From Acutalibacteraceae bacterium (GTDB lineage Bacteria; Bacillota; Clostridia; Oscillospirales; Acutalibacteraceae): 49,418 nt of DNA. The stretch spans positions 1 through 49,418 of the forward strand of contig JAZQJN010000012.1 of NCBI GenBank assembly GCA_045541655.1, in the 5' to 3' direction. Position 1 is the first letter of the stretch; every line of letters starts with the position of its first letter. A program made the translations under genes and the position numbers. The notes beneath the pieces are model-generated. The model was not told the DNA's origin. It made no database searches and saw only the letters and a program-made list of their open reading frames with translations. Shown piece after piece: positions 15,307 to 32,591 of this stretch.

Positions 15307-15464
15307 TTATAAAAATATCTAAAAATCTATTAGAAACCAGCTATTTCATTGCAAAATAGCTGGCTTTTTGTATATAAAGCGTTTTTTAATACACGCATTT
15401 GTGGATTTGCATTATTAAACGCTATTTTAAAATCCACGAATACAAATATTAAGGAGATGATTAT

Positions 15465-16067
15465 ATGAAAACTATCTTTGGATTTATTAAAAACGAGGAT
15501 GGAATAAGCGTAAATAAAGAAGCAGTTAATACAATTAATTTGATTGCTGAACTATATTTACAAGGATTTAGCTTAGGTTCAATTTCAAACACACTTGAGG
15601 ATAAAGGATATTTATCTCCGTCAGGCAAAACAAAATGGTCACGGTCAGTTATTGACTCTATACTATCTAATTCTTCTTATGTTCCGTGTATACTATCAGA
15701 AGAATTATTTTATGAGATACAGTTTGTGAAAGAAAAGCGCAGTAATAAAAATAGCGATAATTCTCGCAAGGCCACAAGGTATAATTCAAAAAATGTACTT
15801 AGCGGTCTTTTGTTTTGTGAAGAATGTGGCGCCTCTTACCGTAGAATAACTAAATCTACTGGTGAAGTTGTCTGGAGATGTGCAAACCGTGTGGAAAGCG
15901 GCAAACGTTTTTGCCATAGTGCGCCAACAATATCAGAAGAAATAATCAAATCGCAAATAATAAGGGCATGTTCCCTTATTATTTGGGATGAGTGCATTGT
16001 TCGGGAAAAAATTGAGCGAATTAATGTTACATCAAATCATAATTTAATCATATTTAATCACACTTAA
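15465..16067 (+). pseudogene. Large serine recombinase remnant (recombinase and zinc-ribbon domains only)
   Basis: LIAELYLQGFSLGSISNTLEDKGY and FCEECGASYRRITKSTGEVVWRC are typical of the middle and zinc-ribbon region. The ~150-aa N-terminal resolvase catalytic domain is absent. Confidence 0.7.
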
Positions 16068-16131
16068 ATCCCTTCCTATTGTAATCCAATTCGGTATATA
16101 GTATAATGTCCGTATAAGTGGATTAGAAAGG

Positions 16132-16770
16132 ATGCGCATTATGAAAGAGTTTGATTCTCGATTAGAAGCTGTATGGACTTATGTAATATCAAAAGAAAAA
16201 CTATTTAAGCGTTTGGTTGAACAAGGAATTTTTGATAAGGAGACAACAGATGAAATACTTGAACATATGTATTCTCAATTTAATTTAGATTATAATCCAA
16301 ACTTTGTTCCTTCTCCAGTGGGAGAAGTTATGTACGCAGCGAAGGTAGATGTGCCGCGAGCTTGTGTCTCTCTTACAGACATCGCAAGAGCAAAAACCGA
16401 TAAGAATCCCGGATATTTAATACAATCGTGGTTACGTAGCGATAATACTATTGAATTTTTACGTGCTTGGGAATTAAAAAACAATAAAAAATTTGATAAT
16501 GATGAATGCGAAAAACTTTTATCAGAAATAAAGCAAAATGGTTCCACACTAACTCCTAAGTTGTGGTCTGAGCGAACTAATGCAACAGGTCTTATCTCCA
16601 CTAAAGGTAAAGGCGGCGGAACAAAAGCAGATACGGATATCGCTTTAGCTTTTCGAGCGTGGTTAAATCCGGATATTATGTTAGAAATGATATCCCGTTT
16701 TAAATACTATGAAATTCAGTTTAATAAAAAAGATCCAACTATCATTTGTCAAGAGAACATCAATCCGTAA
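16132..16770 (+). CDS. KilA-N domain-containing protein
   Basis: SLTDIARAK...IQSWLRSDNTIEFLRAWELKNN...TLTPKLWSERTNATGLISTKGKGGGT...DIALAFRAWLNP matches the KilA-N pattern. Confidence 0.7.
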   Translation: MRIMKEFDSRLEAVWTYVISKEKLFKRLVEQGIFDKETTDEILEHMYSQFNLDYNPNFVPSPVGEVMYAAKVDVPRACVSLTDIARAKTDKNPGYLIQSWLRSDNTIEFLRAWELKNNKKFDNDECEKLLSEIKQNGSTLTPKLWSERTNATGLISTKGKGGGTKADTDIALAFRAWLNPDIMLEMISRFKYYEIQFNKKDPTIICQENINP

Positions 16771-16779
16771 ATATGATAT

Positions 16780-17661
16780 ATGTATTATAAAAAAACTCAA
16801 AAGATAGAAGCATCATTAACAGTTATATCTTTGTACGGTAAAATCAAATGTGGTATGTGTGGAGAAATTTGTTGCGCAACTTGTAACAATAATGGTGAAA
16901 TTTTTTGGTATTGCTCATGTTGCATAAAAGATGGATTGTTAGTCAATCAAAAGGAATTAGCAATAAAGTTGCAGGATGTTACAAATATAACAGATATATA
17001 TTTTGATTTTCTATTTCTAATAGTGGAGAAGGTAATCATTTACAAAGATAATATTGACATTGTTTTAAAGAAAATAGATTCTAGTCAAAAAGCTCTATTG
17101 TTACATCTACAAGATCATTGGTTAGTATATCACAGTATGAGAGGTGACCTAATAGCCAAAGAAACTATTTATAATCAATATTCTTCCTTTTTGGCTGCTA
17201 AACTTAGATATTTAAAAAGTCGTTCAAATCTTAATGATATGGACATTGAAGATTTATCTCAAACTATTTGGTTGCGAGTCTTTTCAAGACTTTCTAACTA
17301 TGATAGTAAATATAGACTCTTCACTTGGATTAATCAAATCCTAAGGTCTGAATTTTATCTAGCAATAAAAAGAAAACAAAAATATTTACTTTCAAACGAT
17401 TGTGTAAGATTAACACTTGATACTAACCAATACAACAAAAGAAATGATATTGATAATTGGATGGACAACGATTATGTAAGTGCGCTACTGTCAGTGCTAT
17501 CTGCGCGAGAACGTGAGATTGTTGTGCGATACTTGTTAAATAACGAAACACAAGTATCTATCTCAAAAGAACTTAAAATTTCGACTACTCGAACTAGTCA
17601 GATTTATTTACAAGCATTAAATAAAATTAGAGCTGAATTTGATGCTGAAACTAAAAAATGA
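16780..17661 (+). CDS. Sigma-70 (ECF-like) family sigma factor with an N-terminal extension derived from a serine-recombinase zinc ribbon
   Basis: Region 2 (EDLSQTIWLRVF...FTWINQILRSEF) and region 4 HTH (LSAREREIVVRYLL...ISKELKISTTRTSQIYLQALNKIR) are present. N-terminal CGMCG-x10-GEIFWYC parallels CEECG-x11-GEVVWRC of the upstream remnant. There is no clear RBS at 16780. Confidence 0.65.
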   Translation: MYYKKTQKIEASLTVISLYGKIKCGMCGEICCATCNNNGEIFWYCSCCIKDGLLVNQKELAIKLQDVTNITDIYFDFLFLIVEKVIIYKDNIDIVLKKIDSSQKALLLHLQDHWLVYHSMRGDLIAKETIYNQYSSFLAAKLRYLKSRSNLNDMDIEDLSQTIWLRVFSRLSNYDSKYRLFTWINQILRSEFYLAIKRKQKYLLSNDCVRLTLDTNQYNKRNDIDNWMDNDYVSALLSVLSAREREIVVRYLLNNETQVSISKELKISTTRTSQIYLQALNKIRAEFDAETKK

Positions 17662-17691
17662 TTAAATTAATGTTTTGAAAGGAACATTGGT

Positions 17692-18942
17692 ATGAAAAAA
17701 GATTATATAAATAAATTAATTAAAGCATACGATTCATTACAATACTTTTATTTTTCTAATGAAAAGGATGAATTGGATTTTGAAGATAAGCCCTATATAA
17801 ATATGTTAGAGCTTCTTTATTCGAAATTTTACGAATATGAATTTTTCAGTGAGGATCTTTTGGAATATGCAGTAATTAGTTATTTAAAACAACAGGATAA
17901 GCCACAAGAAACGAATGAAAACACCATTAAAGAATTCATAGAATATATTATAAATATTTTTGATATCAATAAGCAAAAACATTTCTTGATATTCCCACTT
18001 CAAGGTTCAGGTATTAATTGTGATGTTTCTTTTTCAAATATCCACATATTAAAAGAAAAGGGCGAAGAAGTGTTACTTGATCAAATATCCGAAATCACCG
18101 ATATGAGTTATTATGATGTAAGGGATTTTTTTAGACATACTCAAAATAGTAGATCAAAAGATTTTTTAAAATCTAATATAATGATTATTGAAATCGAAAA
18201 CCAAACATATAATGTTAAACATTCTGCATATCTAATGGCGCAATCAGCGATAAATATCTTAAAGCTTATTCATTCAGCATATGAAATGGAATCAAGTATA
18301 TTTAGAAAATCTGAATTACACGTTAAAAGGAATAGCCATGTTGCGATAATTTCAAAAGATTCCTGGCGATGTGGTCACGGTTTTAATTGGAATGCAAACT
18401 TACAGTGCAAATTAGATATTGATTTTATTGCTGAAAAAAAGCATCAAGAAACTTTTTCAAAAATGTTGAACTTGCTTTTTTCAAAAAGCAATGATCAACT
18501 TAATAGATTATTTATTAATGCATTTGGACTTTTTGAAAAAGCTACAATTCAGAGAACAGAGTTTTGTGAATATGAGATTTCGCTTTTATTATATCTAACA
18601 GCACTTGAGTCTCTATTTACAGAAGGCAAAAATGAGAAAAGACTAAGAATAGCAGCTATTGTTCCTAGAGTGTTGTATGATGATGGAGCTAAAATAACAG
18701 AACTTGCTGAAAAACTAGAAATTCTTTATATGCAACGTAATAATTTTTTACATGCGGGGGAGTTTTTTCATTATAAGCGGATTGATATAACGCTTGAACA
18801 ATTGGAGCAAACAGTTGCCAAAATAATCTTAAAAATTTTGACAATTGATGATATTATCTACGCAAGGGAAAATGAAAGCAACTTGAAGGCCTGGAACAAA
18901 TATACAGATAACATATTTAAAAATATTATTTTAGGTAAATAA
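17692..18942 (+). CDS. HEPN-domain protein (Rx4H), N-terminal ~300 aa unknown
   Basis: C-terminal LTALESLF...LEILYMQRNNFLHAGEF contains R349-N-N-F-L-H354 (DNA 18736-18753). RBS AAAGGAA is present. Confidence 0.6.
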   Translation: MKKDYINKLIKAYDSLQYFYFSNEKDELDFEDKPYINMLELLYSKFYEYEFFSEDLLEYAVISYLKQQDKPQETNENTIKEFIEYIINIFDINKQKHFLIFPLQGSGINCDVSFSNIHILKEKGEEVLLDQISEITDMSYYDVRDFFRHTQNSRSKDFLKSNIMIIEIENQTYNVKHSAYLMAQSAINILKLIHSAYEMESSIFRKSELHVKRNSHVAIISKDSWRCGHGFNWNANLQCKLDIDFIAEKKHQETFSKMLNLLFSKSNDQLNRLFINAFGLFEKATIQRTEFCEYEISLLLYLTALESLFTEGKNEKRLRIAAIVPRVLYDDGAKITELAEKLEILYMQRNNFLHAGEFFHYKRIDITLEQLEQTVAKIILKILTIDDIIYARENESNLKAWNKYTDNIFKNIILGK

Positions 18943-19000
18943 TATTTTTAAAACTTGTTATTCAACAACCCCAAATAGATGAGTGTATCATATATCAATG

Positions 19001-19018
19001 CTTATCAATATTGATAAG
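19001..19018. promoter_or_regulatory. Perfect 18-bp palindrome, candidate operator
   Basis: CTTATCAATATTGATAAG lies about 70 bp upstream of the -35 of the rSAM operon promoter. Confidence 0.45.
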
Positions 19019-19090
19019 ATATTTTCATAAGAAAAACTAACATCACATATTACTTTTATAATTTTCAAAACACATGTCAATACCTTTGCA

Positions 19091-19119
19091 TTGACATTAT
19101 TTTGGCTAGCATGTATAAT
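19091..19119 (+). promoter_or_regulatory. Consensus sigma-A promoter of the rSAM-SDR-2TM operon
   Basis: TTGACA, exactly 17 bp, TATAAT, about 37 bp upstream of the ATG at 19156 (RBS GTGAGGTG). Confidence 0.7.
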
Positions 19120-19155
19120 TATAATATAAGTTTATTTAATATGTGAGGTGAATAT

Positions 19156-20277
19156 ATGCCACATGCAAATAAACAAATGGCTTCGTTCTTTCTGACGTCC
19201 AAATGTAATTTGCGCTGTATATATTGTTACAACCAAGAGGAACGTATAAATCTAGTTGAACAGACATTGCCTATTGAAATTGCAAAAGCTGGTGTTGACT
19301 ATTTTTTCAGAACAAGTCAAAGTCGGCATATTAGATTTTATGGACCAGGAGAGCCGACTCAAGCTTTCATAATAATGAAAGAAATAGTTGAATACGCTAA
19401 AGAACAAGGTGGGAAAACTGTTACTACCGAATTACAGACTAATGGTTGCTTTGGAGAAAACGTCTGTTCTTGGATTAGTAACAATATTGATATAGTATGG
19501 GTGTCATTTGATGGCGAACCAGAAATTCAGAATAAAAATAGACCGTGTGCTAATGGGAAGCCGTCAGCTCCAATTATTGAAAAAAATGTTAAATGGTTGC
19601 TTAAAAACAAATCTGATCACAATATAATGGTGGGGGCACGTGTTACCATAACAAATGAAAATGTACAACGACAGCGTCAAATTATTGATTATTTTTCAAG
19701 TATTGGTATTAAACATATTTGGACCGATCCGATTTTCCCTACTGTAGGTAATATTCCTGTTTGCAATGATTATGAAAAACTAAGTCAATACAATTTTGAT
19801 ATGGATTTGTATGCAGATACATACATTGATGCCTTTTTTTATGCAAAGGAGAAAAACGTTTTTTATGGTAGTTTTCTCACATGCAATTTTGACGGTACAT
19901 GCAACAAGCATTGCCGTGCATGTACCCCAGTTCCACATTTTACAACTGATGGATATATTTCGGCTTGTGATCTAGTAACATTTGGTAAAACACCAAAACA
20001 TATGGATTGTTTTGTGTATGGCAAATGGGATGATACTAAAAAAACTTTTATAATAGATGAAAACAAGGTTAACGCTTTACGCCATAGAACAATAAATAAC
20101 ATGCCACACTGTGCAAAATGTGAGGTTAGAGAACATTGCGGGGGTTATTGTTTGGGGGAAGTGCAAAATGAGACTGGTACGTTATTGGGACAAAAGATAA
20201 ACACCTGTAAAGCAATACGAAAAATAGCACAGAAAATTGGATACCCTGAAAAACCGTATCCATATTTTCATCCATAA
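19156..20277 (+). CDS. Radical SAM enzyme with a C-terminal SPASM domain
   Basis: CNLRCIYC (CX3CX2C) lies at aa 17-24. The C-terminal CAKCEVREHCGGYC (CX2CX5CX3C) plus upstream CNKHCRAC cysteines form a SPASM-type auxiliary cluster signature. Confidence 0.85.
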   Translation: MPHANKQMASFFLTSKCNLRCIYCYNQEERINLVEQTLPIEIAKAGVDYFFRTSQSRHIRFYGPGEPTQAFIIMKEIVEYAKEQGGKTVTTELQTNGCFGENVCSWISNNIDIVWVSFDGEPEIQNKNRPCANGKPSAPIIEKNVKWLLKNKSDHNIMVGARVTITNENVQRQRQIIDYFSSIGIKHIWTDPIFPTVGNIPVCNDYEKLSQYNFDMDLYADTYIDAFFYAKEKNVFYGSFLTCNFDGTCNKHCRACTPVPHFTTDGYISACDLVTFGKTPKHMDCFVYGKWDDTKKTFIIDENKVNALRHRTINNMPHCAKCEVREHCGGYCLGEVQNETGTLLGQKINTCKAIRKIAQKIGYPEKPYPYFHP

Positions 20278-20298
20278 AAATACTTAAGGAGGCAATTT

Positions 20299-21045
20299 AT
20301 GAAAGTTGTTATTGTAGGGGCCGCAAAACCTGGTTACGCGGAATCAATTACGAGGAGATTTATTCGTCAAGGATATAGCGTTATTGGAACATATGACGAA
20401 GAGTATACTGATAATGCAATAAAAATGCAAAATGAGTTCACAGAAGATGTTTTGGTTCTTCGAAAGGTCGATTTGGCAAAGCGTGAAGAGCTATCTTCTT
20501 TTGTTAAATCAGTTCAAGGTAAAATTGATGGATTAATCTTCGCTCAATTTTTCTTTCATATGGAAGACCCAGATGATTTTGATCATATTATGTGGGACAA
20601 AAGTCTTGCAATCAATTTGACAGCTCCAAATTATCTTGTTCACGAATTAAAAGTGCAAATGAATCCAGGAAGTTCGATAGTTATTATAACAAGTACGGAA
20701 GCTTATAGGGGTTCATATGGTGCTTCTGCTTATGCTGCTACAAAGGCTGCGATACATAACCTTGTTCGCACCTTAGCTAATAATTTGGGAAAATATAATA
20801 TCCGCGTTAATGCATTACCAGCAGGATGGATCGGTGGCGAAATGGATACAGATGAAATATTCAATAAATCTAGATCGCTTACTCCATTAGGACGGTTAGG
20901 AACTGACGAGGAAATTGCAAATGTAGTTTATTTTCTATTTTCTAAAGAGTCGAGTTTCATAAATGGCACGACAATTGTTGCTGATGGTGGATACTTAGGC
21001 TCAGATCCTTTGTCAAAATATGAGTTTGAAGATAGTCGTAATTAA
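20299..21045 (+). CDS. Divergent short-chain dehydrogenase/reductase
   Basis: YAATKAA (YxxxK) with an upstream Ser (ITSTEA). The atypical Gly motif VIVGAAKPGYAESI resembles the FabI/pteridine-reductase style. RBS AAGGAGG is present. Confidence 0.8.
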   Translation: MKVVIVGAAKPGYAESITRRFIRQGYSVIGTYDEEYTDNAIKMQNEFTEDVLVLRKVDLAKREELSSFVKSVQGKIDGLIFAQFFFHMEDPDDFDHIMWDKSLAINLTAPNYLVHELKVQMNPGSSIVIITSTEAYRGSYGASAYAATKAAIHNLVRTLANNLGKYNIRVNALPAGWIGGEMDTDEIFNKSRSLTPLGRLGTDEEIANVVYFLFSKESSFINGTTIVADGGYLGSDPLSKYEFEDSRN

Positions 21046-21074
21046 GAAAAAATCGGAAAAGAGAGACGAAATAT

Positions 21075-22100
21075 ATGCGTAAGAAATGGTCGTTTTGGGA
21101 TATAATAATTCTAATGCTTGAAATTTTATCGCCTATTATATCTATTGTAATAACCTGTTTTATTCCAGCGGTCCAGGAACTTTCAGCCGATAGCAGATTA
21201 GCAATTATTGGGACAGGAATTGCTATACCTGTAGTACTAATACAAATTTCTATTACGCAAGGTCAAAACAAGACAGAGAGTGATAACGAAAAGAATAGAA
21301 ATCAGATTATAGAAATTTCTGAAAAAATAAATCATATTAGCCCTGTTTTAGAACAAGTATTTTTATCTGGCAATTCACGTGTACAACGTTTTGCATATCG
21401 CCGCTTTGAAGAAGTTTGTAAAACTATTCATACAGCTGTAAATAATAATAATTCTGGGAATTTACGGCCTAATGAATACTATGAAGAATTATTGCATCTG
21501 TCAGATCTAATTCTTAGGGATAAAGACAAAAACAAAAAGAAATTTCGTGGTGAAATATGGGCTATGACTGGATTTGCCGAGGATGAATGGATTGCCGATG
21601 AAGGATATGAGAATTTGTGGACAGATAAGCTAAAGGAAATGGTAGAAATAAATGCGATAAAAACACGTCGCTTATGTTTATTACCAGATTCATTATACAA
21701 CACGATAACTATGCCTGAATTTTCAGCACCACAAGAAAGTAATCATCCTTTTTGGGGATTTTTAAAATTATTGAATGATTACTATGGTAAAACGTTTAAT
21801 AATTCTAATGTTGAACATTATATTATTAAAGAAAACGATAATCCTAAATTAAAAGAGATTAGGGGTTTTTTTGCGATAAAATTAACTAATGGTGATTTAC
21901 ATATTTTATATGGGGAAACTGTGGATTCGAATGGAGCTTTAACAGCAAAAGTTTTGTTTGATCTTCAAGAAATTCAGGAAGTTCGTACGTTGTTTGAGAG
22001 ATATGCAAAATCTAATTATCGCATTGAAAATATTATACCGAAAATTTCTGATTCGAATGGATTTATTAAGTATCTAGAACAGCACAACATTAAAATATGA
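21075..22100 (+). CDS. 2-TM membrane protein with a ~270-aa cytoplasmic domain of unknown function
   Basis: Two N-terminal hydrophobic helices (aa ~8-30 and ~42-60) are followed by a charged linker and a globular region with no motif I recognise. Confidence 0.65.
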   Translation: MRKKWSFWDIIILMLEILSPIISIVITCFIPAVQELSADSRLAIIGTGIAIPVVLIQISITQGQNKTESDNEKNRNQIIEISEKINHISPVLEQVFLSGNSRVQRFAYRRFEEVCKTIHTAVNNNNSGNLRPNEYYEELLHLSDLILRDKDKNKKKFRGEIWAMTGFAEDEWIADEGYENLWTDKLKEMVEINAIKTRRLCLLPDSLYNTITMPEFSAPQESNHPFWGFLKLLNDYYGKTFNNSNVEHYIIKENDNPKLKEIRGFFAIKLTNGDLHILYGETVDSNGALTAKVLFDLQEIQEVRTLFERYAKSNYRIENIIPKISDSNGFIKYLEQHNIKI

Positions 22101-22345
22101 AGTTAGATTAAAAACACTATTGAACTCCAAGTATTTATAGGTTGGACATCAGTAGTGTTTTTTCTTTTTACCTCTGTTTTCATGCAGTTTTTCATCTTTT
22201 TAAATTGTTATTTTGAATTGGCTCAAAAAACAAAAAATCCGAAATCGATAAATAAAATTTTAAAATTAAATTATTCATCAAAAAATCTGACTACTATTAT
22301 AATAGCCAGATTTTTTGTTAAAAAAAAGACGCATAGCACACAGTC

Positions 22346-22413
22346 GCAAAAAGTACATTTTGCACAAAAAGATACAAACAGTGCAACTCGCACATATAGA
22401 AATATGTTATAAT
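22346..22413 (+). promoter_or_regulatory. Operator-like palindromes and an extended -10 promoter upstream of the HTH/R-M operon
   Basis: GCAAAAAGTACATTTTGC (22346-22363, 17 of 18 positions palindromic). TTGCAC-N15-GTGCAA (22360-22386). TGTTATAAT (22405-22413). Confidence 0.45.
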
Positions 22414-22430
22414 TTCATTGAGGTGATATT

Positions 22431-22898
22431 GTGCAAAATAATTCGTATCTTAATTTTAGAGAGAATTTAGAGTTGTTATTAAAGGGTAAATCGTATTCTG
22501 AATTAGCTTTGTATTTGGGTGTGCCTTCAAGCACACTTAAAAGTTGGATCAATGGTAGCAGGTGCCCAACGCTAAGAAATATTGATAAACTTGCTAATAG
22601 GATAGGATGTTATTCTTCTGATTTATTAAATTCAAAGGTTTGTATTATTAACAAAAAAGTACATTCAAATGATTCTCACATTTCTTTTGTTAAAAATTTG
22701 AATATTATGTTTTTGAAAAATCAATGCTTTTCGACACCTCAAAAACTTGCTTTATTAAACAATGTTATAACTGATTTTGCATTACAATCTTATTTAAGAA
22801 AACAAGATTATAAGTTGCCGACATTATCCAAATTAGATGTTATAGCAGATGCGCTTGGTATATCTACATATACTTTATTATTGGAGGAAACAAAATGA
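22431..22898 (+). CDS. Tandem-HTH XRE-family regulator (controller-protein-like)
   Basis: GTG start after GAGGTGA. HTH 1 is YSELALYLGVPSSTLKSWINGSRCPTLRNIDKLA. A second HTH-like segment is LPTLSKLDVIADALGISTYTLL. The stop overlaps the next start (ATGA). Confidence 0.7.
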   Translation: MQNNSYLNFRENLELLLKGKSYSELALYLGVPSSTLKSWINGSRCPTLRNIDKLANRIGCYSSDLLNSKVCIINKKVHSNDSHISFVKNLNIMFLKNQCFSTPQKLALLNNVITDFALQSYLRKQDYKLPTLSKLDVIADALGISTYTLLLEETK

Positions 22899-25303
22899 AA
22901 AAAGAGATTACACGTGAAAATAAAGAAAAAATACAGAAGTTGTTAGCGGCTATAGATGGAGTAGAAAATAGTGTTCCTTTCTTACTTAAAACAGCATTTA
23001 ATTTCAAGGGGAGAAAGTCGCCAATCATTGCACAGAAAGTTATAGAAGCCATAACAGAAGAAACTGATGCTATATTTGACCCATTTATGGGTTCAGCTTC
23101 GTTTGTAATTGCAGCAGCAAAAGCAAACAGAAAAATTGTAGCCACAGAAATAGATAATTACACATATTCCGCAGTATATGCTCTGTTAGCTAAAGTAAAT
23201 ACTGAGAAGTTAAATACAATATTCAAAAACATAGAAGCATCGGTTAAATCCTCTGTTATGGAATTGTACGAAACTTCCTGTTGCGGAGTTAAAAATTATA
23301 TAGAAAAATTATATTTTGACCCACAAGACAATGAGTTTTACTATCCTCGTCCAAACAGAGAGTTTTCTGACGGTAAAAACATAAAATTAATTTCGGCTTG
23401 TCCTATATGTGGAAAAAAAGACAAAGCGTTTGAAGGGTTTGATGAAGAAAAAATCAACTCTATTTCGGAAGAGGATGTTATAGATTTCCCTAAAGATACT
23501 TATATAGAAAATAGCCGAATTAATATAACTAGGTCTACGGGTGCAAATCGTTATGATAGAATATTTACAAAAAGAAATCAAAAGGCTTTGCTATTAATAC
23601 AAAGGGCAATATTAGAGCAAAGTGCTTCAATAGAACGGGATGTCATTGAACAGGCGCTAGTTTCCGCCCTGTCACTAGCAAGAATTTCAATGTACGGCTC
23701 AAGCACCGATATATTATATCATGTGGTTCCGTTCGGTGCTCAAGAAATGAATGTTTGGACACTGTTTGAGTCTAAATTAAATAGCTTTATTAATTTTAAG
23801 AAAGAGTATTCAGATATTTTATTGGCTGATTCTGATGATAACAAAAAGTATTATATACATAACGAATCGTATCAAGATTTTTGTTCCGAAAAACTGATGA
23901 AGGATTCGTTTGATTTGATATACACTGATTTTCCGTATACAGATCAAGTTCCTTATTTAGAAAGGAATCAATTATATAGGGTTTGGTTAAACAAATTTTA
24001 TAATAATGATATTTCTTTTGAATTGACTTCTAAAATGCTCAATGAAGAAATTGTTCAAACGGATTCTCCTCAGAGGGAAAACAAAAAAGGTGTTGATCAA
24101 TATTATTTAGATATAGATAAAATGTTTAAAACATTTTATAAGGTGTTAAAAACAAATTCGCTTGCTATTTTTACTGTAAAGTTGGGAAAAGCAAAATATT
24201 TCACAACACTTATGGAAATTATTAATCTTGCGAGAAAAAACGGTTTTGAATATGCCTTTAGAGTCGGCATAGACAAAAATGATCCTACTATACGTAAACA
24301 AGCGGCGTATAAAAACACGCTTTCTAATGAAATGATAATAGGATTTCAAAAATTAGATGAGGAGAATCGTTACTGGTACATAGGCAACAAGAACTACGAG
24401 TTCGAAACAGTTAAGTTAGTTTATAATGCGATAGAAAAAGATGAAATAACCATTAGCCATGCTGTTGATTTGGTGCGAAAAACTATAATAAATAAAGAAT
24501 CATATTTTGTATCTGACGAGGAAATTTTGACGATAAAGGATATTATTTTTAACAACTTTGTTATTGATACAAATACATCTATTGTTAGAAAGGATTACAA
24601 CAAACTATATTTGGATATTGAAGATAATTCTGATTTATTTACAAAATTTTATAATTTTATTCCCGTTATTATCAAGCGCCTTTTAGATGAGAACGGAAAG
24701 TTCGTTCTTGATGACCTTTATTTTGAAATAGCAAACACGTTATGTAACGGCGACCCTAAAACAGTAAATCAATTTCTTGAAGACAGAAGTCACGCCTCTG
24801 ATATAGACATATTGGTAAAAAATTATTGTGAAACTGATGGTCGAGTTTACACCAAGAAAAACTATACTGAAGCAGTTAAAGAAGGTGCCGTAGATATTTC
24901 AACATTGGAAGGATATGAATTTGAACATCTAATTAAAAAGTTACTAGAAAAAGACGGCTTCTTTAATGTAGTTAATACTGGCGGTGCAGGAGATTTGGGA
25001 GTTGATTTGTTGGCGCATAAATATGATGAGAATAAAATAGATAAATTATATTTATTCCAATGTAAACGCTGGGCTGCAAATGTTGGTAGTGAACCAATGC
25101 AACGTTTAGTAGCAGAAAAATTACGCCGTGGCGCCGATGTTGCTATATGCATTACTACATCAGATTTCACAAAGGATGGACAATTGATTTCTAATGAACA
25201 GGATGTCGGAATGTGGAATGGTGAGTATGTGACTCGAAAATTAAATGAGCATTTCCCGAATCAGTATTACAACGGTGCTTTGGAATGGAGCATAGGAGAT
25301 TAG
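22895..25303 (+). CDS. Fusion protein: permuted N6/N4-type DNA methyltransferase-like module with degenerate motifs, a middle domain, and a C-terminal Mrr-type PD-(D/E)xK nuclease
   Basis: FDPFMGSASF (motif I-like) lies at aa ~60 and LIYTDFPY (motif IV-like) at aa ~345. The C-terminal FEHLIKKLL...GAGDLGVDLLA...LYLFQCKRW matches the Mrr_cat pattern (D...QxK). Confidence 0.7.
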   Translation: MKKEITRENKEKIQKLLAAIDGVENSVPFLLKTAFNFKGRKSPIIAQKVIEAITEETDAIFDPFMGSASFVIAAAKANRKIVATEIDNYTYSAVYALLAKVNTEKLNTIFKNIEASVKSSVMELYETSCCGVKNYIEKLYFDPQDNEFYYPRPNREFSDGKNIKLISACPICGKKDKAFEGFDEEKINSISEEDVIDFPKDTYIENSRINITRSTGANRYDRIFTKRNQKALLLIQRAILEQSASIERDVIEQALVSALSLARISMYGSSTDILYHVVPFGAQEMNVWTLFESKLNSFINFKKEYSDILLADSDDNKKYYIHNESYQDFCSEKLMKDSFDLIYTDFPYTDQVPYLERNQLYRVWLNKFYNNDISFELTSKMLNEEIVQTDSPQRENKKGVDQYYLDIDKMFKTFYKVLKTNSLAIFTVKLGKAKYFTTLMEIINLARKNGFEYAFRVGIDKNDPTIRKQAAYKNTLSNEMIIGFQKLDEENRYWYIGNKNYEFETVKLVYNAIEKDEITISHAVDLVRKTIINKESYFVSDEEILTIKDIIFNNFVIDTNTSIVRKDYNKLYLDIEDNSDLFTKFYNFIPVIIKRLLDENGKFVLDDLYFEIANTLCNGDPKTVNQFLEDRSHASDIDILVKNYCETDGRVYTKKNYTEAVKEGAVDISTLEGYEFEHLIKKLLEKDGFFNVVNTGGAGDLGVDLLAHKYDENKIDKLYLFQCKRWAANVGSEPMQRLVAEKLRRGADVAICITTSDFTKDGQLISNEQDVGMWNGEYVTRKLNEHFPNQYYNGALEWSIGD

Positions 25304-25326
25304 ATATTTAAGGAGGTATAAATATT

Positions 25327-26325
25327 ATGGCTTGTAAAAGAATGAATGCCATTTTTTGTGAGCTTAAAACCATCCAAGAAGAATTTGGAAAGTTAACTGG
25401 GGAATACAATATATATTCAAGCAGCAAAATATATGAAATTATAATAGCAAATATGTTGGAACATCATATTTTAGCTGGTGCACATGGTGCGGATGCATAT
25501 GATGATTCTAAAAATCATTATGAATATAAGCATTATAAAGAATCAAGCTCTAACCACACTTGGACGTTTAATGATTATACCGATAAAACACTATCTGAAT
25601 TAAAATCTCGAACAGTTATATTTGCGCATATAAATGATATAAATTCAACAAATCCTTTGGAATATGTGGATTGGTATTACAAAGTTGATGGTAAGGTTAT
25701 AGCGAGATATATTTCTAATTGGTCTCAAAATTCTGGCAATAAACGAAAAATGATAAATATAAGTGTTTCACAATTAGAAAGTGATTGTAATGCTGAAAAA
25801 ATTTGTGTAAACTCAGATAATCTTGAAGGGCGATACTCTAATTATATTATTAAGATTTTTGAATGTATTGATTATCTTGAAAAATTCACAAAAACCACAA
25901 ATTTATTGACAAGCAATAAATTATGGGAATTGTTTTTAGCAAATGGATTAAACCATAAAATAAACTCCAAACAAGGCGGTATGGGAGGAAAACATGATGC
26001 TCAAGATTCCCAAAATCGAAAATATGAGTATAAAATATCTCAAAGCACATTATGGACCTTTGAGGATGTGAGTGATGACGTTATTGCTAATATGAGATTA
26101 TTAGATGGTATATATTTATCTCAAATTGATAAAAGGAAATTTGAAATTAAAAAAATCCTATTGTTAGATACCAATAAAACGATGAATTTTATTAAAAAGA
26201 AAAGAGATATAATGATTGCCGAGAAAAATAAGAGTAATATATTGATTCGCCGTTTGAATGTTTCTATCTCGTTGAATGAAGTTAAAAATGAAGGATTAAT
26301 AATAAAAAGTTTTCCTACAATATAA
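25327..26325 (+). CDS. Tandem-duplicated PvuII-like restriction endonuclease (single-chain pseudo-dimer)
   Basis: Two copies of K(I/L)(Y/W)E(I/L)..AN.L...G..DA.D-x5-YEYK...WTF.D occur at aa ~33-85 and ~198-245. The spacing is identical to my recollection of the PvuII catalytic segment GNDAVDNAGQEYELK. Confidence 0.65.
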   Translation: MACKRMNAIFCELKTIQEEFGKLTGEYNIYSSSKIYEIIIANMLEHHILAGAHGADAYDDSKNHYEYKHYKESSSNHTWTFNDYTDKTLSELKSRTVIFAHINDINSTNPLEYVDWYYKVDGKVIARYISNWSQNSGNKRKMINISVSQLESDCNAEKICVNSDNLEGRYSNYIIKIFECIDYLEKFTKTTNLLTSNKLWELFLANGLNHKINSKQGGMGGKHDAQDSQNRKYEYKISQSTLWTFEDVSDDVIANMRLLDGIYLSQIDKRKFEIKKILLLDTNKTMNFIKKKRDIMIAEKNKSNILIRRLNVSISLNEVKNEGLIIKSFPTI

Positions 26326-26328
26326 CAC

Positions 26329-26365
26329 AAAAGGAATCGTTCTGATTTTTGAACGATTCCTTTTT
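26329..26365. terminator. Bidirectional terminator between convergent R-M modules
   Basis: AAAGGAATCGTTC-TGATTTTT-GAACGATTCCTTT. Confidence 0.8.
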
Positions 26366-26368
26366 ATG

Positions 26369-27958
26369 CTACAATATCCATTTGGCAGTATCAGTGTCCC
26401 ACTTTAAATGTTTTTCAAAAATGTCAACTAATGATTTATACTTTAGGGAGAGGGTTTTTAGCCAACCGTTTTGTATTAAAATTTCCATAAGACCTTTGTC
26501 ATAAAGTTCTGGCGTTGACAACGAGCCGCTTTGTTTCACTAAAAAACGGGCTTGGCGGACAATATTCTTTTCTATTTCCTCCACTTGTTCGGCTCCCTCT
26601 TGTCCATAAATGGGAAATTGCGTTTTTTTGAAGAATAAAATACAATCGCCATTTAGTGATTTTTTTGGACTAATAATATTTTTTAGTGTATTAGACTTTG
26701 CAATATGCGCTTGTCCTAAATATTGTAATTGATAATTTGATAGACTACCGATTAATTTGTTCCAAACTTCTAAGCTTGAATCGTGGAAATACATACAAAA
26801 ATAGCCATCCATTTTTAGTTTATCAGAGCATATTTTAAAAACATCATCTAATAACTTAAAATATTCATCTTCACCTTTGTTGCGAGATGGTGCAGACGAA
26901 ACTACGATTTCATCATCTATATCAAAATTTAAATCCAAAAAAGGTTTATACAATTGCATGTATTCCGAGTATGCAACTTGACCCAAATAAGGGGGATCTG
27001 TAATGATAAGTTGTATAGATTCATTAGCAATATCCAAATTATCTATATGTTGGCTGCCTTTATGTAACAATTTATATTCTAGTTTCTCTTTATAATTTTC
27101 TTCTAAAAAGGCGATTGTACTAGAAAACTTTTTCACCTTTTTTTCTAACAAATCAATAACATTTTTTTCTACACAATCTGTTTTAGGAATCCAAAGCGGC
27201 CATTGAGAATTAGAATGTTTATCAGTGATCTTGCATAAATGTATAACCGACATCAATATGTATTTAAATAAATCATTATAGCAAGATAAATTGTTAATAA
27301 TACCAACTACCTCATCCAATACAGTAAAATTTCTTTTGGTGAAGATTTGGCTTATATGTTGATTTTCATATACAGCTAATTTACTGTTTGCTATGAGTAG
27401 TGTATCATTTATATTTTTAATAATATGATTGACGTTAATTGATTGAATATCGTTGATATCTGGGGTTTTGGTGCATTTAGAAGAACATGTGCATCTATAA
27501 TTAATGCTTTTAATTGCTATTTCTGCATCTCGTTGCGGTTTATCGAAAACAACAGATGTTATTACGCCTTTTGAACCGCAATTATCACAATCAGTATAAT
27601 AATACTTTTGTAATAATCTAATTTTGGAAAGAAATTCGTGTGAGACTTTTTTGTATATTTGTGCATCATAATCTTTTAACAAAGTTTTTACTATAAAAAG
27701 TGGTGCTTCATTTATTTCGCAACCAATTGCTTTCCTTTTTTTTCCCTTAGAAATAGACTGAAGCAGGGTAACACCCGAACCTAAAAATGGATCGAAAACA
27801 GTGTCGCCCTCATTACTAAATGCGTCAATTAATATATCACAAATGTTAAATGGCTTTTGTGACCAATAAATATGCGAGTCATACAAAGGGTTTTTGTTGG
27901 AGGCAGATGTACTATATATTTCTTTTTTAACTTCTTCTATTGATTTCATAATAGTCAC
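26369..27958 (-). CDS. DNA methyltransferase (N6/N4 type, motif I before motif IV, Cys-rich insert)
   Basis: VFDPFLGSGVT lies at aa ~55 and LIITDPPY at aa ~320. A Cys cluster (CDNCGS...YRCTCSSKC) lies between them. Confidence 0.8.
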   Translation of the reverse strand: MTIMKSIEEVKKEIYSTSASNKNPLYDSHIYWSQKPFNICDILIDAFSNEGDTVFDPFLGSGVTLLQSISKGKKRKAIGCEINEAPLFIVKTLLKDYDAQIYKKVSHEFLSKIRLLQKYYYTDCDNCGSKGVITSVVFDKPQRDAEIAIKSINYRCTCSSKCTKTPDINDIQSINVNHIIKNINDTLLIANSKLAVYENQHISQIFTKRNFTVLDEVVGIINNLSCYNDLFKYILMSVIHLCKITDKHSNSQWPLWIPKTDCVEKNVIDLLEKKVKKFSSTIAFLEENYKEKLEYKLLHKGSQHIDNLDIANESIQLIITDPPYLGQVAYSEYMQLYKPFLDLNFDIDDEIVVSSAPSRNKGEDEYFKLLDDVFKICSDKLKMDGYFCMYFHDSSLEVWNKLIGSLSNYQLQYLGQAHIAKSNTLKNIISPKKSLNGDCILFFKKTQFPIYGQEGAEQVEEIEKNIVRQARFLVKQSGSLSTPELYDKGLMEILIQNGWLKTLSLKYKSLVDIFEKHLKWDTDTAKWIL

Positions 27959-29190
27959 CGCCCATTACACAATATTAAATATTCAATTACTTTTTTCGGT
28001 GCTTTATTTCTGTTGTTTGAATGAGAATAATTTAATGTTGCGATCTCAACATTTGTTGCGCCAAATTCTTTAGAACAAGAATCTTTAATATCATCAATAG
28101 ACATCACATACCTGTCGGTTTTTTGTTTTGTGACATCTGCCGGATATGCAAAACTAATAGCTAGGTTTTTATTATATGCATTAGCAAAACAAACTAAATT
28201 ATTGAATGTAGTTAAACACGTACTTTTGGCACTTAATTTTGATTGATATCTATTTTCTGTATATAGACCCTTGGTATATTTTCCGGAGTTTTGTGTTGGA
28301 GCGGGATAATCGTATTTCGCAACTATATTTAATAAATGATAATATCTTGAATATTGCATATCCGTGTAAGGGGGGTCAGCGTAGATAAAGCTAACGTTAT
28401 TCTTTATATCGTCTTGCTTTATTAAATCTTCAAAATTCATATTATAAGTTTTGTTGCTTTTTGTAGTCTTAATAAATTCATCCAAAAAGAAACTCTGAAA
28501 CTTTTCTTTAAAAATATTGTAAATGGACTTATTGCGGGTTAAAAACAATTTAAATACATTGTCTTTTAAATTTAGAGGTTGTGCCATATGTCCGTCTTTA
28601 GAAAAAACACATTCTTTCATCGCAAAAAACAAAGATGTAAGCAACGGAAAGAATAAAGACGTTGATTTGAATTGTTCAATGGCATATCTTAAAGAATCAA
28701 TCTCTATTGATTGATTTAAACCAAAATAGGAACTAGAATAATATGTAGTAAAAAGTTCGAAATTATTATGGTTTTTGATAAAAGGTATTTTATGATTCCA
28801 AACGGTTGGAAATTCTTCATAAAACTCGATTAGAGCGGAATAATTATCTAAATCTGAAAGCAGTGTCTTTTCTTGTAATTGTTGTTCTATGATACTTTCT
28901 GAAAATTTGCCCATATTAGAAAAGAAATAATCATCTATTTGCATTAATATTTTTTGGGGATCTTCTTTATATGTTCCAAGCAAAGCGGTTGAAATAATAT
29001 ATGAATATAATTCACTATCATTAGCATAGATGGTATAATCTCTTTTATAACTGTATCCCACGCTGCATGTGCCGGCAAAAATATCCAATAACGTGGAGTT
29101 GGGTTCAATATAAGAAGCAGCATTTTGATGAATAAACTCAAGTAAGTTTTTTTTACTACCCTGATAATTCAAAACAGAAAAATGATCCAT
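27955..29190 (-). CDS. D12-class (Dam-like) N6-adenine DNA methyltransferase
   Basis: NYQGSKK, LLDIFAGTCSVG and FIYADPPY motifs. RBS GGAGGGG precedes the ATG at 29190. There is a 4-bp overlap with the downstream MTase gene. Confidence 0.8.
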   Translation of the reverse strand: MDHFSVLNYQGSKKNLLEFIHQNAASYIEPNSTLLDIFAGTCSVGYSYKRDYTIYANDSELYSYIISTALLGTYKEDPQKILMQIDDYFFSNMGKFSESIIEQQLQEKTLLSDLDNYSALIEFYEEFPTVWNHKIPFIKNHNNFELFTTYYSSSYFGLNQSIEIDSLRYAIEQFKSTSLFFPLLTSLFFAMKECVFSKDGHMAQPLNLKDNVFKLFLTRNKSIYNIFKEKFQSFFLDEFIKTTKSNKTYNMNFEDLIKQDDIKNNVSFIYADPPYTDMQYSRYYHLLNIVAKYDYPAPTQNSGKYTKGLYTENRYQSKLSAKSTCLTTFNNLVCFANAYNKNLAISFAYPADVTKQKTDRYVMSIDDIKDSCSKEFGATNVEIATLNYSHSNNRNKAPKKVIEYLILCNGR

Positions 29191-29506
29191 ATATTCCCCT
29201 CCACACAATATTGTAATGATTATAACATATTAATTTAAAATAATCAACTACATATAAAAAATTATAGCTAAAAAAATTGCATCGGAAAAATTCGGTGTGT
29301 CTAAATTCGCCTAAAATGATTGATTGAAACACATAAAACATTTACCGTATAAGCAAACAGATATTCCTATTATTGATGTCTTGCAATATAGTTAAAAAAT
29401 TTGTGTACTAGCATTTAAACTATATGGTTGTTTTATATGTAGGGGTACGAACACATAGGTCAAAAATTCAAAAGGGTTAGAATTTGTGCTCCCCTACCAA
29501 AGCATT

Positions 29507-29613
29507 CAAACCCGAACCTTTTACCAATTGGTTAAACGTTCGGGTTTGTTGTTTGTTAAAAGCTATATTAATTACTTTTTGGAAAGGGCAGTGCGATTTT
29601 GCACTGCCCTTTC
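29507..29613. repeat. Two strong palindromes in a gene-free gap
   Basis: A ~42-nt near-perfect palindrome lies at 29507-29548 (CAAACCCGAAC...ACCAATTGGT...GTTCGGGTTTG). A 13-bp stem GAAAGGGCAGTGC / GCACTGCCCTTTC lies at 29582-29613. Confidence 0.8.
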
Positions 29614-29648
29614 GTAGAAATCGTTTGAATATTATTAATAGGTATATC

Positions 29649-32411
29649 TTATTGACTAGAGGTGTTTTTGATTTTTAACTTGTGATTACGTGTCATATAT
29701 GTATATGTATCACCATAGATTTCGTGTTCAATCTCACATAATGGCTGAAAATATGTGTTATTGTTTCGAGTGTCCCAGGTGGTGCAATATTTTGCATATG
29801 GTAAATTTATCTTCTTAAATTCTGTTTCAAAATCAACATCTGTTACAAATCTAGGCACATACTCCCAATTAGCGTACGCATCAATAGAGTTTTTGGATAA
29901 AGTAAATACGTTTGCTGACCAAGAGTCCACACCCGTATATGAACCGCTAGAATACGAATCAATAACTATACTATATTTCCCAATAATATCACTATAATAA
30001 AGGTAGATGTTTTTAGCAGTGCAGAAAGAAACCTCGCAAATCACTGTGGATATAGAGGAACTATAGTCATTACTAGATTTATAGGTTTCTACTGTGATAT
30101 CACCATGCTGATTGGATTCTGATTTTGACACACGCAAAACAATTAAATCATTAATATTATCTTTATCCAGATCGATGTTGTCAACCATACTAATAATACC
30201 GAAAATTTTGTTAGGATAACTTTGAATGTCCGCACCCAAACAGGAGGTAAAACTTTCTTGTGATGATAGCCCATACTTATCAATTATCGATGATTTTAAG
30301 TCGTTTATTTTATCTTTGCTTTCATTTGCTTTATTTGATGAATCTTCATTTAGAACAACAGGGGTAAAGTCAGTTTTTATAGTGATTTTATCTTTTGCTT
30401 TGCTATCATCTCCGTCTACCACTATTTTTACATCAATAGATTTTGATATGTTCTCACTATCGTTTATATCCGTTATGCGTAATACATAAGTTCCGTCTTT
30501 TAAATTCAAAGTATGCTGTCCAGAAATCTTCTCTTTCTCGAAAACTTTCTTTGCTTTTATATTGTTGAGATTTACAATTTCAAGTTTATATTCTATAACT
30601 TCATTAGAGGCATTTACAACACCGCTATCAACGTAGGTTATGACTGATAAATCAAATTTGTTTTTTACAGTTTCAGAATAAGTAAACACAGCATTGTTGA
30701 TGCCAACTTTTTCAAAAGCCGCTATAACTGTTTTATATTGTTCTTCGGTAAGTTTTTTGTTTTTGAGCATTATTCTTGCAGATAATTCTACGGCATTTCT
30801 GCATTGTGAAAAGTTAGAGTCAGGTTGCAAAAGGTTTAAGGCATTAAACCACATAGAGGCAAGGGAAGCGTTATCGATTTTTGGATTCTTGTCAATTCCT
30901 TCGCTCATTAAATAGGCAGCGTGTGAAATAACAGTGCTATTTTTGTGAACGTGGCCACAGTCATTATTGTCTCCATTGTCAACGGTGCTTCCCCAGTTTT
31001 CATCCAAGTAACGGGCAGGTTGATTATTATCAGAAGGGCTTTTTATATTTCGGTCAAACACAGTCCATGTACACTTACCATTTAACACGCCGTCTTTAGC
31101 ATAATCCTCCGCTATTTCACCGAATATGTCTGAATAGGCCTCCATTATTGAACCAGTTTCACCAGAATATATCATATTTGAAATTGAACCCTCGACAGAA
31201 TGGGTAAATTCGTGTCCGACCTGTCCTACATTCGATAAATCCTGTTGATATCCAAACACTAATACATTGGCACTTGAATAAGCATTATCGCCATCTGAAT
31301 AATGGTAGTCATTGTAAGAGGTAAGCATAGGACTATTTTTATTATCATATCCGTTCCATTTTAAAATTTTGGAATAAAAGTCATAGATGTTTTCGACACT
31401 GTTTATCAAATTTGTAGCACTTTCATTCCATTTAGCGTCTTTTGAACCTTCAAGTTTTATATTTCCGCATATTAAAGTTTTATTTTTTTCCCATAATGGA
31501 TTAGGGTTTTCATTAGTTTTATTATCGTTTGATACCTTAGTACATTTATTATTTGAGCCATAAGCTACAAGCTTTTTTTTATTAGAGTTTAATACTAAAA
31601 TGTTCCTTGACTCATCATACATAAGATAAGTCTTGTCATTGATTTTGTATGTGTATTCATCTGAAGAATGTTTGATATTGCCGGTTCTAATTAGGTTGTT
31701 TTTTAAAAGTATATCGCCATTTTTTGCTGAAATAATACATTGGTCGTGAATTACGTTATTTTCGTCAGATTTACTAACAGTAATATCGTACGCAAGAGTG
31801 GAAGAAGAATTATAAAGAGAATATATGACTAATCCATTGTTTGTTTGACTATCAACGCCATCATATTCTTTGTCGATTTTATTGCTGATTTTTTCTTCGT
31901 TTAGTGAGGGGGTTATATCAATATCTCCCACAGGTGAATAGTTTGAGGTAAGACCTAAAGCATTTCCCTCTTTGCCTGCCACAACAGTAATGTTGCGACC
32001 AAAAACAGGGATGCCATTATAATATTGTTGTATGCGGTAATAGGTTTCAGTTTCTCTTTTGTTAGTAAAAGAAACTTTAAGTTCACTTTCTGCGTTTTGG
32101 ATTCCCAAGGCATCCGAAACAGATGCAACGGCTTCTATTGCGGACTTTTCATCTGTAATTATAACATCCGTAAAGCCCTCCATAAAAGAATTATACTCTC
32201 CATATGTATATGGAACAGTAACTTTATTAAGGAATATTAACGCACCGAAAATGCTAGTTGCAATTATGCCGATACAACATACCACTACAATAACGGTTCT
32301 AACTAATTTCTTTCTTTTTTTCTTGGCTTTTAAATTTGCTTGATCGCATTGAGGACACAATCCTGTTTTTTTATCTACTTTTTGACCGCAATTAGCACAA
32401 AAGTTAATCAT
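29649..32411 (-). CDS. Membrane-anchored M4 (thermolysin-like) metallopeptidase with an N-terminal zinc ribbon
   Basis: HEFTHSV (HExxH) and EAYSDIFGE (third Zn ligand motif). N-terminal CANCG...CPQC, then KKKRKK and one TM helix. About 300 aa of unknown C-terminal domains follow. Confidence 0.85.
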   Translation of the reverse strand: MINFCANCGQKVDKKTGLCPQCDQANLKAKKKRKKLVRTVIVVVCCIGIIATSIFGALIFLNKVTVPYTYGEYNSFMEGFTDVIITDEKSAIEAVASVSDALGIQNAESELKVSFTNKRETETYYRIQQYYNGIPVFGRNITVVAGKEGNALGLTSNYSPVGDIDITPSLNEEKISNKIDKEYDGVDSQTNNGLVIYSLYNSSSTLAYDITVSKSDENNVIHDQCIISAKNGDILLKNNLIRTGNIKHSSDEYTYKINDKTYLMYDESRNILVLNSNKKKLVAYGSNNKCTKVSNDNKTNENPNPLWEKNKTLICGNIKLEGSKDAKWNESATNLINSVENIYDFYSKILKWNGYDNKNSPMLTSYNDYHYSDGDNAYSSANVLVFGYQQDLSNVGQVGHEFTHSVEGSISNMIYSGETGSIMEAYSDIFGEIAEDYAKDGVLNGKCTWTVFDRNIKSPSDNNQPARYLDENWGSTVDNGDNNDCGHVHKNSTVISHAAYLMSEGIDKNPKIDNASLASMWFNALNLLQPDSNFSQCRNAVELSARIMLKNKKLTEEQYKTVIAAFEKVGINNAVFTYSETVKNKFDLSVITYVDSGVVNASNEVIEYKLEIVNLNNIKAKKVFEKEKISGQHTLNLKDGTYVLRITDINDSENISKSIDVKIVVDGDDSKAKDKITIKTDFTPVVLNEDSSNKANESKDKINDLKSSIIDKYGLSSQESFTSCLGADIQSYPNKIFGIISMVDNIDLDKDNINDLIVLRVSKSESNQHGDITVETYKSSNDYSSSISTVICEVSFCTAKNIYLYYSDIIGKYSIVIDSYSSGSYTGVDSWSANVFTLSKNSIDAYANWEYVPRFVTDVDFETEFKKINLPYAKYCTTWDTRNNNTYFQPLCEIEHEIYGDTYTYMTRNHKLKIKNTSSQ

Positions 32412-32591
32412 CTTATATTCTCCTTAATAAACATAGATTTAAACTATATTGTAATTGCAGTATATCACAATATCATATAAAAACAAAGTTTTTTTGGAAA
32501 AGTTATGAAAAATGTCGTATATAAGTGTTTTTATCAAAACCTATTTTGGATTTCATCGTGAGCGAAAGCGAAACGATTTCATCCTATTTCC

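Follow-up and report, generated by a model that had tools for sequence, protein, structure and literature searches.

A BtgZI-like fusion of a methyltransferase-derived module to an Mrr-type nuclease is the probable restriction endonuclease of a conserved cassette in an Acutalibacteraceae bacterium

The contig JAZQJN010000012.1 of an Acutalibacteraceae bacterium (GenBank assembly GCA_045541655.1), a stretch of 49,418 nucleotides called here the window, carries on its forward strand (positions 22895-25303) a gene for an 802-aa fusion protein in which a methyltransferase (MTase)-like module is followed by an Mrr-type nuclease domain. We conclude that this fusion is probably the restriction endonuclease (R or RM protein) of a type II restriction-modification (R-M) system that is regulated by a controller gene, directed at an asymmetric site and built like the enzyme BtgZI. 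The domain identities, the paralogy to a neighbouring MTase, the conservation and the gene linkage behind this conclusion were observed directly, and the fusion is of a known but barely documented kind, not a categorically new one. In most type IIC enzymes an N-terminal PD-(D/E)XK nuclease precedes a gamma-class MTase and 'at least one' enzyme differs (Pingoud et al. 2014, PMC4081073): BtgZI is described in that review as having an MTase of the alpha class at its N-terminus, followed by a C-terminal PD-(D/E)XK variant with Q replacing E. An earlier reading of the window, made from its letters alone and called here the sequence-only reading, had judged the order MTase then nuclease to be uncommon, which agrees with the review, where BtgZI is named as the one known type IIC exception.

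The nuclease domain lies at residues 669-777 (positions 24899-25225), where Mrr_cat (PF04471) matches with E 5.3e-21 and 75.3 bits against a Pfam cut-off of 21. The sequence-only reading had proposed a C-terminal Mrr-type nuclease from the strings FEHLIKKLL, GDLGVDLL, LFQCKRW and ICITTSDFT, all of which are present in the translation, and the profile search leaves that call standing. The motif of this PD-(D/E)xK-type nuclease, supported by invariant residues and by Foldseek, comprises E677 and D704-X17-Q722-C-K724; that of MspJI, whose nuclease domain is the top Foldseek match of the fusion model, is D-X20-QAK. The AlphaFold2 (AF2) model has a mean predicted local distance difference test score (pLDDT) of 80.7 and a predicted template modelling score (pTM) of 0.75, and Dam, an alpha-class MTase, is among its structural matches (TMt 0.50); these whole-model Foldseek comparisons gave mostly single-domain local matches with low template modelling (TM) scores and are informative for domain identity only. 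A sequence search of the PDB with the fusion returned only marginal matches of beta-class MTases, to motif I.

The N-terminal module has the linear order of the alpha class, that is, motifs X, I and II, then a 235-aa insert, then motifs IV to VIII. Pfam N6_N4_Mtase (PF01555) matches residues 29-91 only (E 1.7e-10, 41.7 bits against a cut-off of 26.7) and covers profile positions 159-216 only, which is the part with motifs X, I and II; the rest of the methylase fold was detected by the PADLOC MTase_II model (residues 38-492) and by BLASTP against M2, a 529-aa MTase encoded on the opposite strand. From this Pfam match and from conserved residues, we delimited an N-lobe at aa 29-100 (positions 22979-23194), with motif X as NFKGRKS, motif I as DPFMGSASF (aa 62-70) and motif II as ATEIDN, which contains E85. 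The insert, or target-recognition domain (TRD), at aa 101-335 (23195-23899) was delimited by invariant alignment columns and by homology to M2; it contains four invariant cysteines (C129, C130, C169 and C172) in a zinc-ribbon-like arrangement, together with NSRINIT and IFTKRN. Conservation defines the C-lobe at aa 336-490 (23900-24364), which runs from motif IV, TDFPY (aa 344-348, positions 23924-23938), through motif VIII and includes the conserved loop DKNDPTIRKQ. Between this module and the nuclease, the secondary structure of the AF2 model indicates a helical linker at aa 491-665 (24365-24889), for which no family match was found and whose identity to the tail of M2 (MT529) is only 12%.

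M2 (26369-27958, reverse strand) is a permuted N6_N4-type MTase, with motif I before motif IV (Pfam E 5.8e-22), which has canonical GSG and DPPY motifs and matches the PADLOC MTase_II model over its full length. The collinearity of the first part of the 802-aa open reading frame (ORF) with M2, asserted in the sequence-only reading, is confirmed by BLASTP, with 27% identity over 388 aa and E 2e-21, collinear from residue 45 to residue 421. All the strings quoted for it are found: FDPFMGSASF against FDPFLGSGVT, a Cys-rich insert, IFTKRN in both proteins and TDFPYTDQVPYLERNQLY against TDPPYLGQVAYSEYMQLY. Within the TRD, the two proteins share 22% identity, and NS[RK] and IFT.RN are common to both. 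Judging from these alignments, the N-terminal ~490 aa of the fusion are paralogous to M2.

Gene context was studied by comparing the proteins of the window with 31 full-length loci from species-representative genomes, 28 of which had enough downstream DNA to be informative. The cassette has a fixed order, in which a helix-turn-helix (HTH) controller gene and the fusion gene converge with an M2 gene (529-aa type) followed by an M1 gene (D12-class methylase): an M2 orthologue (46-99% identity) and then an M1 orthologue, convergent to the fusion gene, are present in 28 of the 28 informative loci. The linkage of a nuclease gene to cognate MTase genes that defines type II R-M systems is thus observed in every locus with downstream sequence. 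Since the fusion is the sole nuclease candidate in most loci, we regard it as the restriction component; and since a pair of MTases that serve one strand each marks a recognition site as asymmetric, the cassette is predicted to be an R-M system for such a site with the fusion as its endonuclease. The copy of Clostridium butyricum is labelled in RefSeq as a restriction endonuclease, a DNA methyltransferase and a DNA adenine methylase. The hosts of the cassette span Clostridia, Gastranaerophilales, Alkalibacterium, Aggregatibacter and Erysipelotrichaceae, a diversity which indicates that it moves horizontally as a unit.

The second methylase of the window, M1 (27955-29208, reverse strand), is a 417-aa D12-class N6-adenine MTase with FAGTCS and ADPPY motifs (MethyltransfD12 E 8.3e-17), and its stop overlaps the M2 start in a GTGA (27955-27958). 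In two loci, M1 and M2 form one ORF of ~960-976 aa (L008, 5394-8324, reverse strand; L020, 12640-15525, reverse strand), and many such M1-M2 fusions of ~950-990 aa occur among the family representatives. What lies between the fusion gene and M2 differs from locus to locus: an IS66-type insertion in L008 (2603-5366), a phosphate transporter with GGDEF cargo in L006 (12501-15324) and an unrelated 317-aa gene in L027 (12401-13354).

The same linkage decides between the two options of the sequence-only reading, namely a type IIG-like enzyme with the MTase at the N-terminus and the nuclease at the C-terminus, which is now the better supported and has BtgZI as a precedent, and an impaired MTase-like module that licenses the Mrr nuclease as a reader of modification. 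The latter would make the fusion a type IV enzyme comparable to Mrr or MspJI, in which the module detects a methylated base. The D...QxK type of the nuclease and a weak PADLOC match to the mREase_IV model do point in that direction, but in each of the 28 informative loci the gene is tightly linked to two MTases, of which one is its paralogue and has a TRD homologous to its own. This linkage contradicts the type IV reading, and an enzyme that cuts the sites made by M1 and M2 would kill its host. To our knowledge, type IV enzymes characteristically have no linked cognate MTase. We therefore rejected the type IV idea on gene linkage and regard it as very improbable; an 'impaired reader licensing Mrr' is not needed to explain the fusion.

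Conservation was examined in a large family. A word-indexed search gave 481 relatives of the fusion, and the best 120 of them are nearly all full-length (~795-812 aa). When residues 1-660 were searched exhaustively, ~25 full-length representatives were recovered at a clustering level of 50%, with identities as low as 25%, and a profile of the distant branch with a DPPY motif added 533 further relatives. Where a source names a relative, the name is usually 'restriction endonuclease', and the members named by NCBI are all so called. Hosts include Clostridium tyrobutyricum, C. butyricum, C. septicum, Pseudobacteroides cellulosolvens, Youngiibacter, Bacillus altitudinis, B. kwashiorkori and Margalitia; the branch with canonical DPPY extends to Bacillaceae, and the proteins of this branch have DPPY and GSG where the fusion has DFPY and GSA. 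The nuclease is strongly conserved. Across the family, down to ~25% identity, no variation is seen in E677, D704, Q722 and K724 or in much of the Mrr domain, and QxKR[WY] is present in 251 of the 251 members tallied. The idea that the fusion is primarily a third MTase or a regulator with a vestigial nuclease domain could invoke the label 'DNA modification methylase' which some sources give to family members, but it is scarcely credible in view of these invariant catalytic residues and of the lack of another nuclease in most cassettes.

The sequence-only reading had called the MTase-like module motif-degenerate. The substitutions it pointed to are real: motif I, canonically F-x-G-x-G, reads F-M-G-S-A in the fusion where the family consensus is GSG, and DFPY departs from the canonical motif IV (D/N/S)PP(Y/F/W). 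Their use as evidence of impairment is not supported. When 20 relatives with identities as low as 53% are aligned, YTDFPYTDQVPYLERNQLYR shows no variation, and motif I has the consensus DPFMGSGSF, GSASF being a minority state. Among 251 full-length members, motif IV is DFPY in 143, DPPY in 105, DPPW in two and DVPY in one, these motif tallies being drawn from non-random, phylogenetically related samples. Far from being a private degeneration, DFPY is invariant throughout a whole derived clade of a DPPY family; since this clade is a single one nested inside DPPY lineages in the neighbour-joining tree, P346F is a single, fixed and conserved change and not decay. GSA is a minority variant of a GSG consensus, and GSA and GTC are also seen at motif I of the presumably active M1 methylases of these cassettes. 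The fusion keeps all the residues that are conserved in both the fusions and the stand-alone MTases (K41, D62, P63, F64, G66, D345, P347, Y348, Q351, Y354 and E356); T344 is likewise common to the fusion and true MTases, and E85 is retained. As far as such conservation can tell, the MTase-derived module is a functional, selected unit that binds DNA and probably S-adenosylmethionine (SAM).

DFPY is also found in a stand-alone MTase of 515 aa (L083, 6001-8614, forward strand) that belongs to the same permuted family; the operon it appears to form has two genes and no other MTase, its partner being an overlapping 358-aa protein. We considered this MTase (P0191) as a proof of an active DFPY motif and set it aside, the case being circumstantial only, with an operon partner of no recognisable family.

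Whether the module still transfers methyl groups, as in a true type IIC enzyme, or only reads the sequence, as in a type IIS enzyme, is a point on which the evidence is ambivalent. A role as sequence reader without methylation is possible: the DFPY clade, and especially its GSA members, would have lost methyl transfer, and the module would serve as a reader of the sequence and sensor of unmethylated adenine in a pure type IIS enzyme. We lean slightly against this variant of our interpretation while taking it seriously. It draws support from the two separate MTases that already cover both strands in every locus, which would make a third activity redundant, from the fixation of P346F in one derived clade, and from the last glycine of motif I, which varies in the fusions. 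Yet the DFPY block and its flanks are invariant, with D62, F64, G66, E85, D345, P347 and Y348 retained; the M1 methylases of the same cassettes, presumably active, also show GSA and GTC; the stand-alone DFPY MTase is the sole methylase of its apparent operon; and in the Erm/KsgA adenine-N6 methyltransferases the active motif IV reads N-(I/L)-P-Y. BtgZI itself (type IIS/IIC, GCGATG 10/14, from Bacillus thermoglucosidasius) is filed in the review under type IIC, the class with both activities (PMC4081073).

Several observations weigh against a fusion that is an intact and BtgZI-like restriction enzyme. It carries two derived substitutions, G68A and P346F, at canonical MTase motifs. The last motif I glycine is replaced (by A, N, C, S or L) in at least 62 of 251 fusions, while it is replaced in none of the 40 stand-alone M2-type MTases and in none of the 12 scorable M1-M2 fusions (of 13), i.e. 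in 0/52 genuine M2-type MTases, which hints that SAM chemistry may be under weaker constraint in the nuclease fusions than in M2-type MTases. The fusion gene is frameshifted in one locus (L025, 10001-12372). Finally, the match to BtgZI is a match to a two-sentence published description and not to a sequence.

A second nuclease gene is present in the window. Starting 24 nt downstream of the fusion gene, with its own Shine-Dalgarno sequence and apparently co-transcribed with it, this gene (25327-26325, forward strand) encodes a 332-aa protein which we describe as a single-chain (tandem) PvuII-like endonuclease, facultative in the cassette. It has an internal tandem duplication (E 1e-10) with halves that are 33% identical over a 78-aa aligned core, its homologues carry PF09225 (Endonuc-PvuII), and its family profile matches 3KSK, an engineered single-chain PvuII, in both halves. 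The AF2 model (pLDDT 89.9) matches 3KSK in Foldseek with E 2e-13 and a TM score of 0.63-0.66 over 332 columns. The catalytic D...ExK is kept in both halves, where D56/E66/K68 and D224/E234/K236 are invariant. The family is widespread, with 269 matches that are typically flanked by two MTases.

The PvuII-like gene accompanies the cassette in nine of the 31 loci, where it takes one of two positions; elsewhere its neighbours are other MTase pairs or fused MTases. In a Fusobacterium genome (L079), no nuclease other than the PvuII-like protein accompanies the orthologous M2 (41%) and M1 (44%), and because it alone serves this orthologous pair there, the window is predicted to carry two unrelated nucleases dependent on one methylase pair. 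The adjacency of the two genes, their apparent co-transcription and their linkage in 9/31 loci would also suit a single heteromeric nuclease composed of the fusion and the PvuII-like protein, for instance with one strand cut by each, as in BtsI or BsrDI. This we consider improbable: the fusion occurs alone with M1 and M2 in most loci, as the PvuII-like protein does with orthologous M1 and M2 in Fusobacterium, the position of the PvuII-like gene relative to the fusion gene differs between loci, and the PvuII-like protein has two complete active sites of its own. An obligate heteromer was rejected because each protein occurs alone.

We propose the following mechanism for the fusion as a type II endonuclease. 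Its N-terminal ~490 aa, a duplicated copy of the system's own M2 with a homologous TRD, would bind the same sequence as M2 and probe the target adenine in the conserved D-x-P-Y pocket. Methylation by M1 and M2, which would protect the host with one enzyme per strand, may block productive binding or licensing of the fusion. The helical linker would position the C-terminal Mrr-type nuclease so that, on unmethylated DNA, it might cut at a fixed offset to one side, a prediction modelled on BtgZI and other type IIS/IIC enzymes; cleavage would probably follow a transient dimerisation, as proposed for FokI and type IIC enzymes, because each fusion chain has one active site. A bolder extension, which we put forward tentatively and think rather unlikely in its entirety, is that the M1-M2 pair constitutes a fixed modification core on which unrelated nucleases are swapped or stacked, that the DFPY/GSA module is a non-methylating, base-flipping sensor of unmethylated adenine, and that one methylation pattern disarms both nucleases of the window.

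Expression of the nuclease may be timed by the HTH gene that precedes it (22431-22898, forward strand), which encodes a 155-aa protein of the XRE/Cro-C1 type (HTH_3 E 1.4e-12). As the sequence-only reading had seen, this gene and the fusion gene are translationally coupled through an ATGA, where ...ACA AAA TGA overlaps ATG AAA, and a GGAGG Shine-Dalgarno sequence stands 8 nt upstream. In at least 19 loci, the fusion gene starts next to, or overlapping with, a homologous or analogous HTH gene of ~155-170 aa. The match of the 155-aa protein to the PADLOC Control_protein model is weak (E 1.7e-4) and its length is about twice that of classical C proteins; a weak second HTH-like match also falls at residues 133-149, close to its C-terminus. 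Upstream of a TATAAT-like -10 element, the tandem GTACATTTTGCACA (22353-22366) and GTGCAACTCGCACA (22381-22394) form a candidate operator for this controller (22353-22394, forward strand). The GTRC-N6-CACA pair was also found by eye upstream of the HTH gene in L001, L002, L006 and L076, that is, in five loci including the window, and the HTH protein could delay or limit nuclease expression through these boxes. A perfect 18-bp palindrome, GCAAAAAGTACATTTTGC (22346-22363), was tried as a C-box and discarded, because even L001, a relative with ~97-100% identity, has not conserved it. Between the convergent operons, a hairpin read from the sequence, AAAGGAATCGTTC / GAACGATTCCTTT (26330-26363), is likely a bidirectional terminator.

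The cassette is located in a low-GC island (0.27-0.33; positions 15180-32500 of the window) that starts at a tRNA-Leu gene (15180-15263) and contains the remnant of a truncated large serine recombinase (15465-16067), together with KilA-N (16132-16770) and sigma-70-like (16780-17661) genes. Directly upstream of the cassette are four co-directional genes (17692-22100, forward strand), which could be another island-borne function or defence system: a gene of 416 aa, a radical SAM enzyme whose C-terminus is Cys-rich (19156-20277), a short-chain dehydrogenase/reductase (20299-21045) and a 341-aa protein with N-terminal transmembrane segments and no family match. At the edge of the island, a gene on the reverse strand (29649-32411) encodes a thermolysin-like (M4) metallopeptidase of 920 aa, either secreted or anchored in the membrane, whose N-terminus has a zinc-ribbon-like CxxC motif. 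Elsewhere, the cassette of C. butyricum NZ_CP033248 (L076) is on a megaplasmid and adjoins phage-like replication genes (DNA polymerase, DUF2815 and DUF2800), and a 53%-identical copy was found in the phage collection, on MT836948, a short human-faecal contig whose deposited name is 'Bacteriophage sp.'.

BtgZI is in wide use for cloning, and in the literature searched its architecture has a two-sentence published description and no solved structure. The present family indicates that the order MTase then nuclease is not a one-off, with hundreds of members in a fixed three- or four-gene cassette, in several phyla and on mobile islands. It offers candidates for new type IIS specificities, as well as a case in which two unrelated nucleases rely on a single methylase pair, and can be viewed as a natural experiment in which a methyltransferase copy was turned into the DNA-recognition module of a nuclease (DPPY to DFPY, with a relaxed motif I). 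The surprises are modest: the size of the family and its fixed cassette, the clade-fixed DFPY, and a methylase pair common to two nucleases, one of which is a natural single-chain PvuII.

Among known systems, the architecture of the fusion matches that of BtgZI, with an alpha-class MTase at the N-terminus and a Q-variant nuclease at the C-terminus, membership being judged from the published description and not from sequence. Members of the family occur in Bacillaceae, the source group of BtgZI, whereas the fusion of the window itself has DFPY and GSA. No named BtgZI homologue or sequence was found in the literature, family cluster names, plasmid and phage collections searched, and the profile search of the DPPY clade returned no (Para)geobacillus member. 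The classical type IIG/IIC enzymes (Eco57I, BpuSI and MmeI) are likewise single chains that combine an MTase-fold recognition part with a PD-(D/E)xK nuclease, and Eco57I comes with a single separate MTase, BpuSI with two (PMC4081073). They have an N-terminal nuclease, a gamma-class MTase with NPPY/F/W and a C-terminal TRD, whereas the fusion has the reversed order, an alpha-ordered PF01555-like MTase and an Mrr-type nuclease. With Mrr and MspJI, the fusion shares the nuclease domain (Mrr_cat, D...QxK, MspJI as best structural match); these type IV enzymes are modification-dependent, with SRA-like or winged-helix readers and no cognate MTase, in contrast to the MTase-derived module and the obligatory MTase partners of the fusion.

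The permuted MTases of the PglXI/DUF1156 type, known from bacteriophage exclusion (BREX) type 3 and related systems, have the same motif order as the fusion module and M2, both of which give PADLOC PglXI and NCBIfam DUF1156 matches far below the family cut-offs; the domain context is different and no BREX partner genes are present. The 332-aa neighbour shares with PvuII and its single-chain form 3KSK the fold, the catalytic D...ExK in both halves and a full-length superposition, but it is a natural tandem with diverged halves and its two MTases imply an asymmetric rather than a palindromic site. Finally, FokI resembles the fusion in its N-terminal recognition part, its C-terminal nuclease with a single active site and its two adenine MTase activities, one per strand, and differs from it in a recognition domain that is not MTase-derived and a nuclease that is not of the Mrr type. 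In M.FokI the two adenine MTase activities are fused in one protein, and the single M1-M2 ORFs of L008 and L020 parallel this two-domain methylase.

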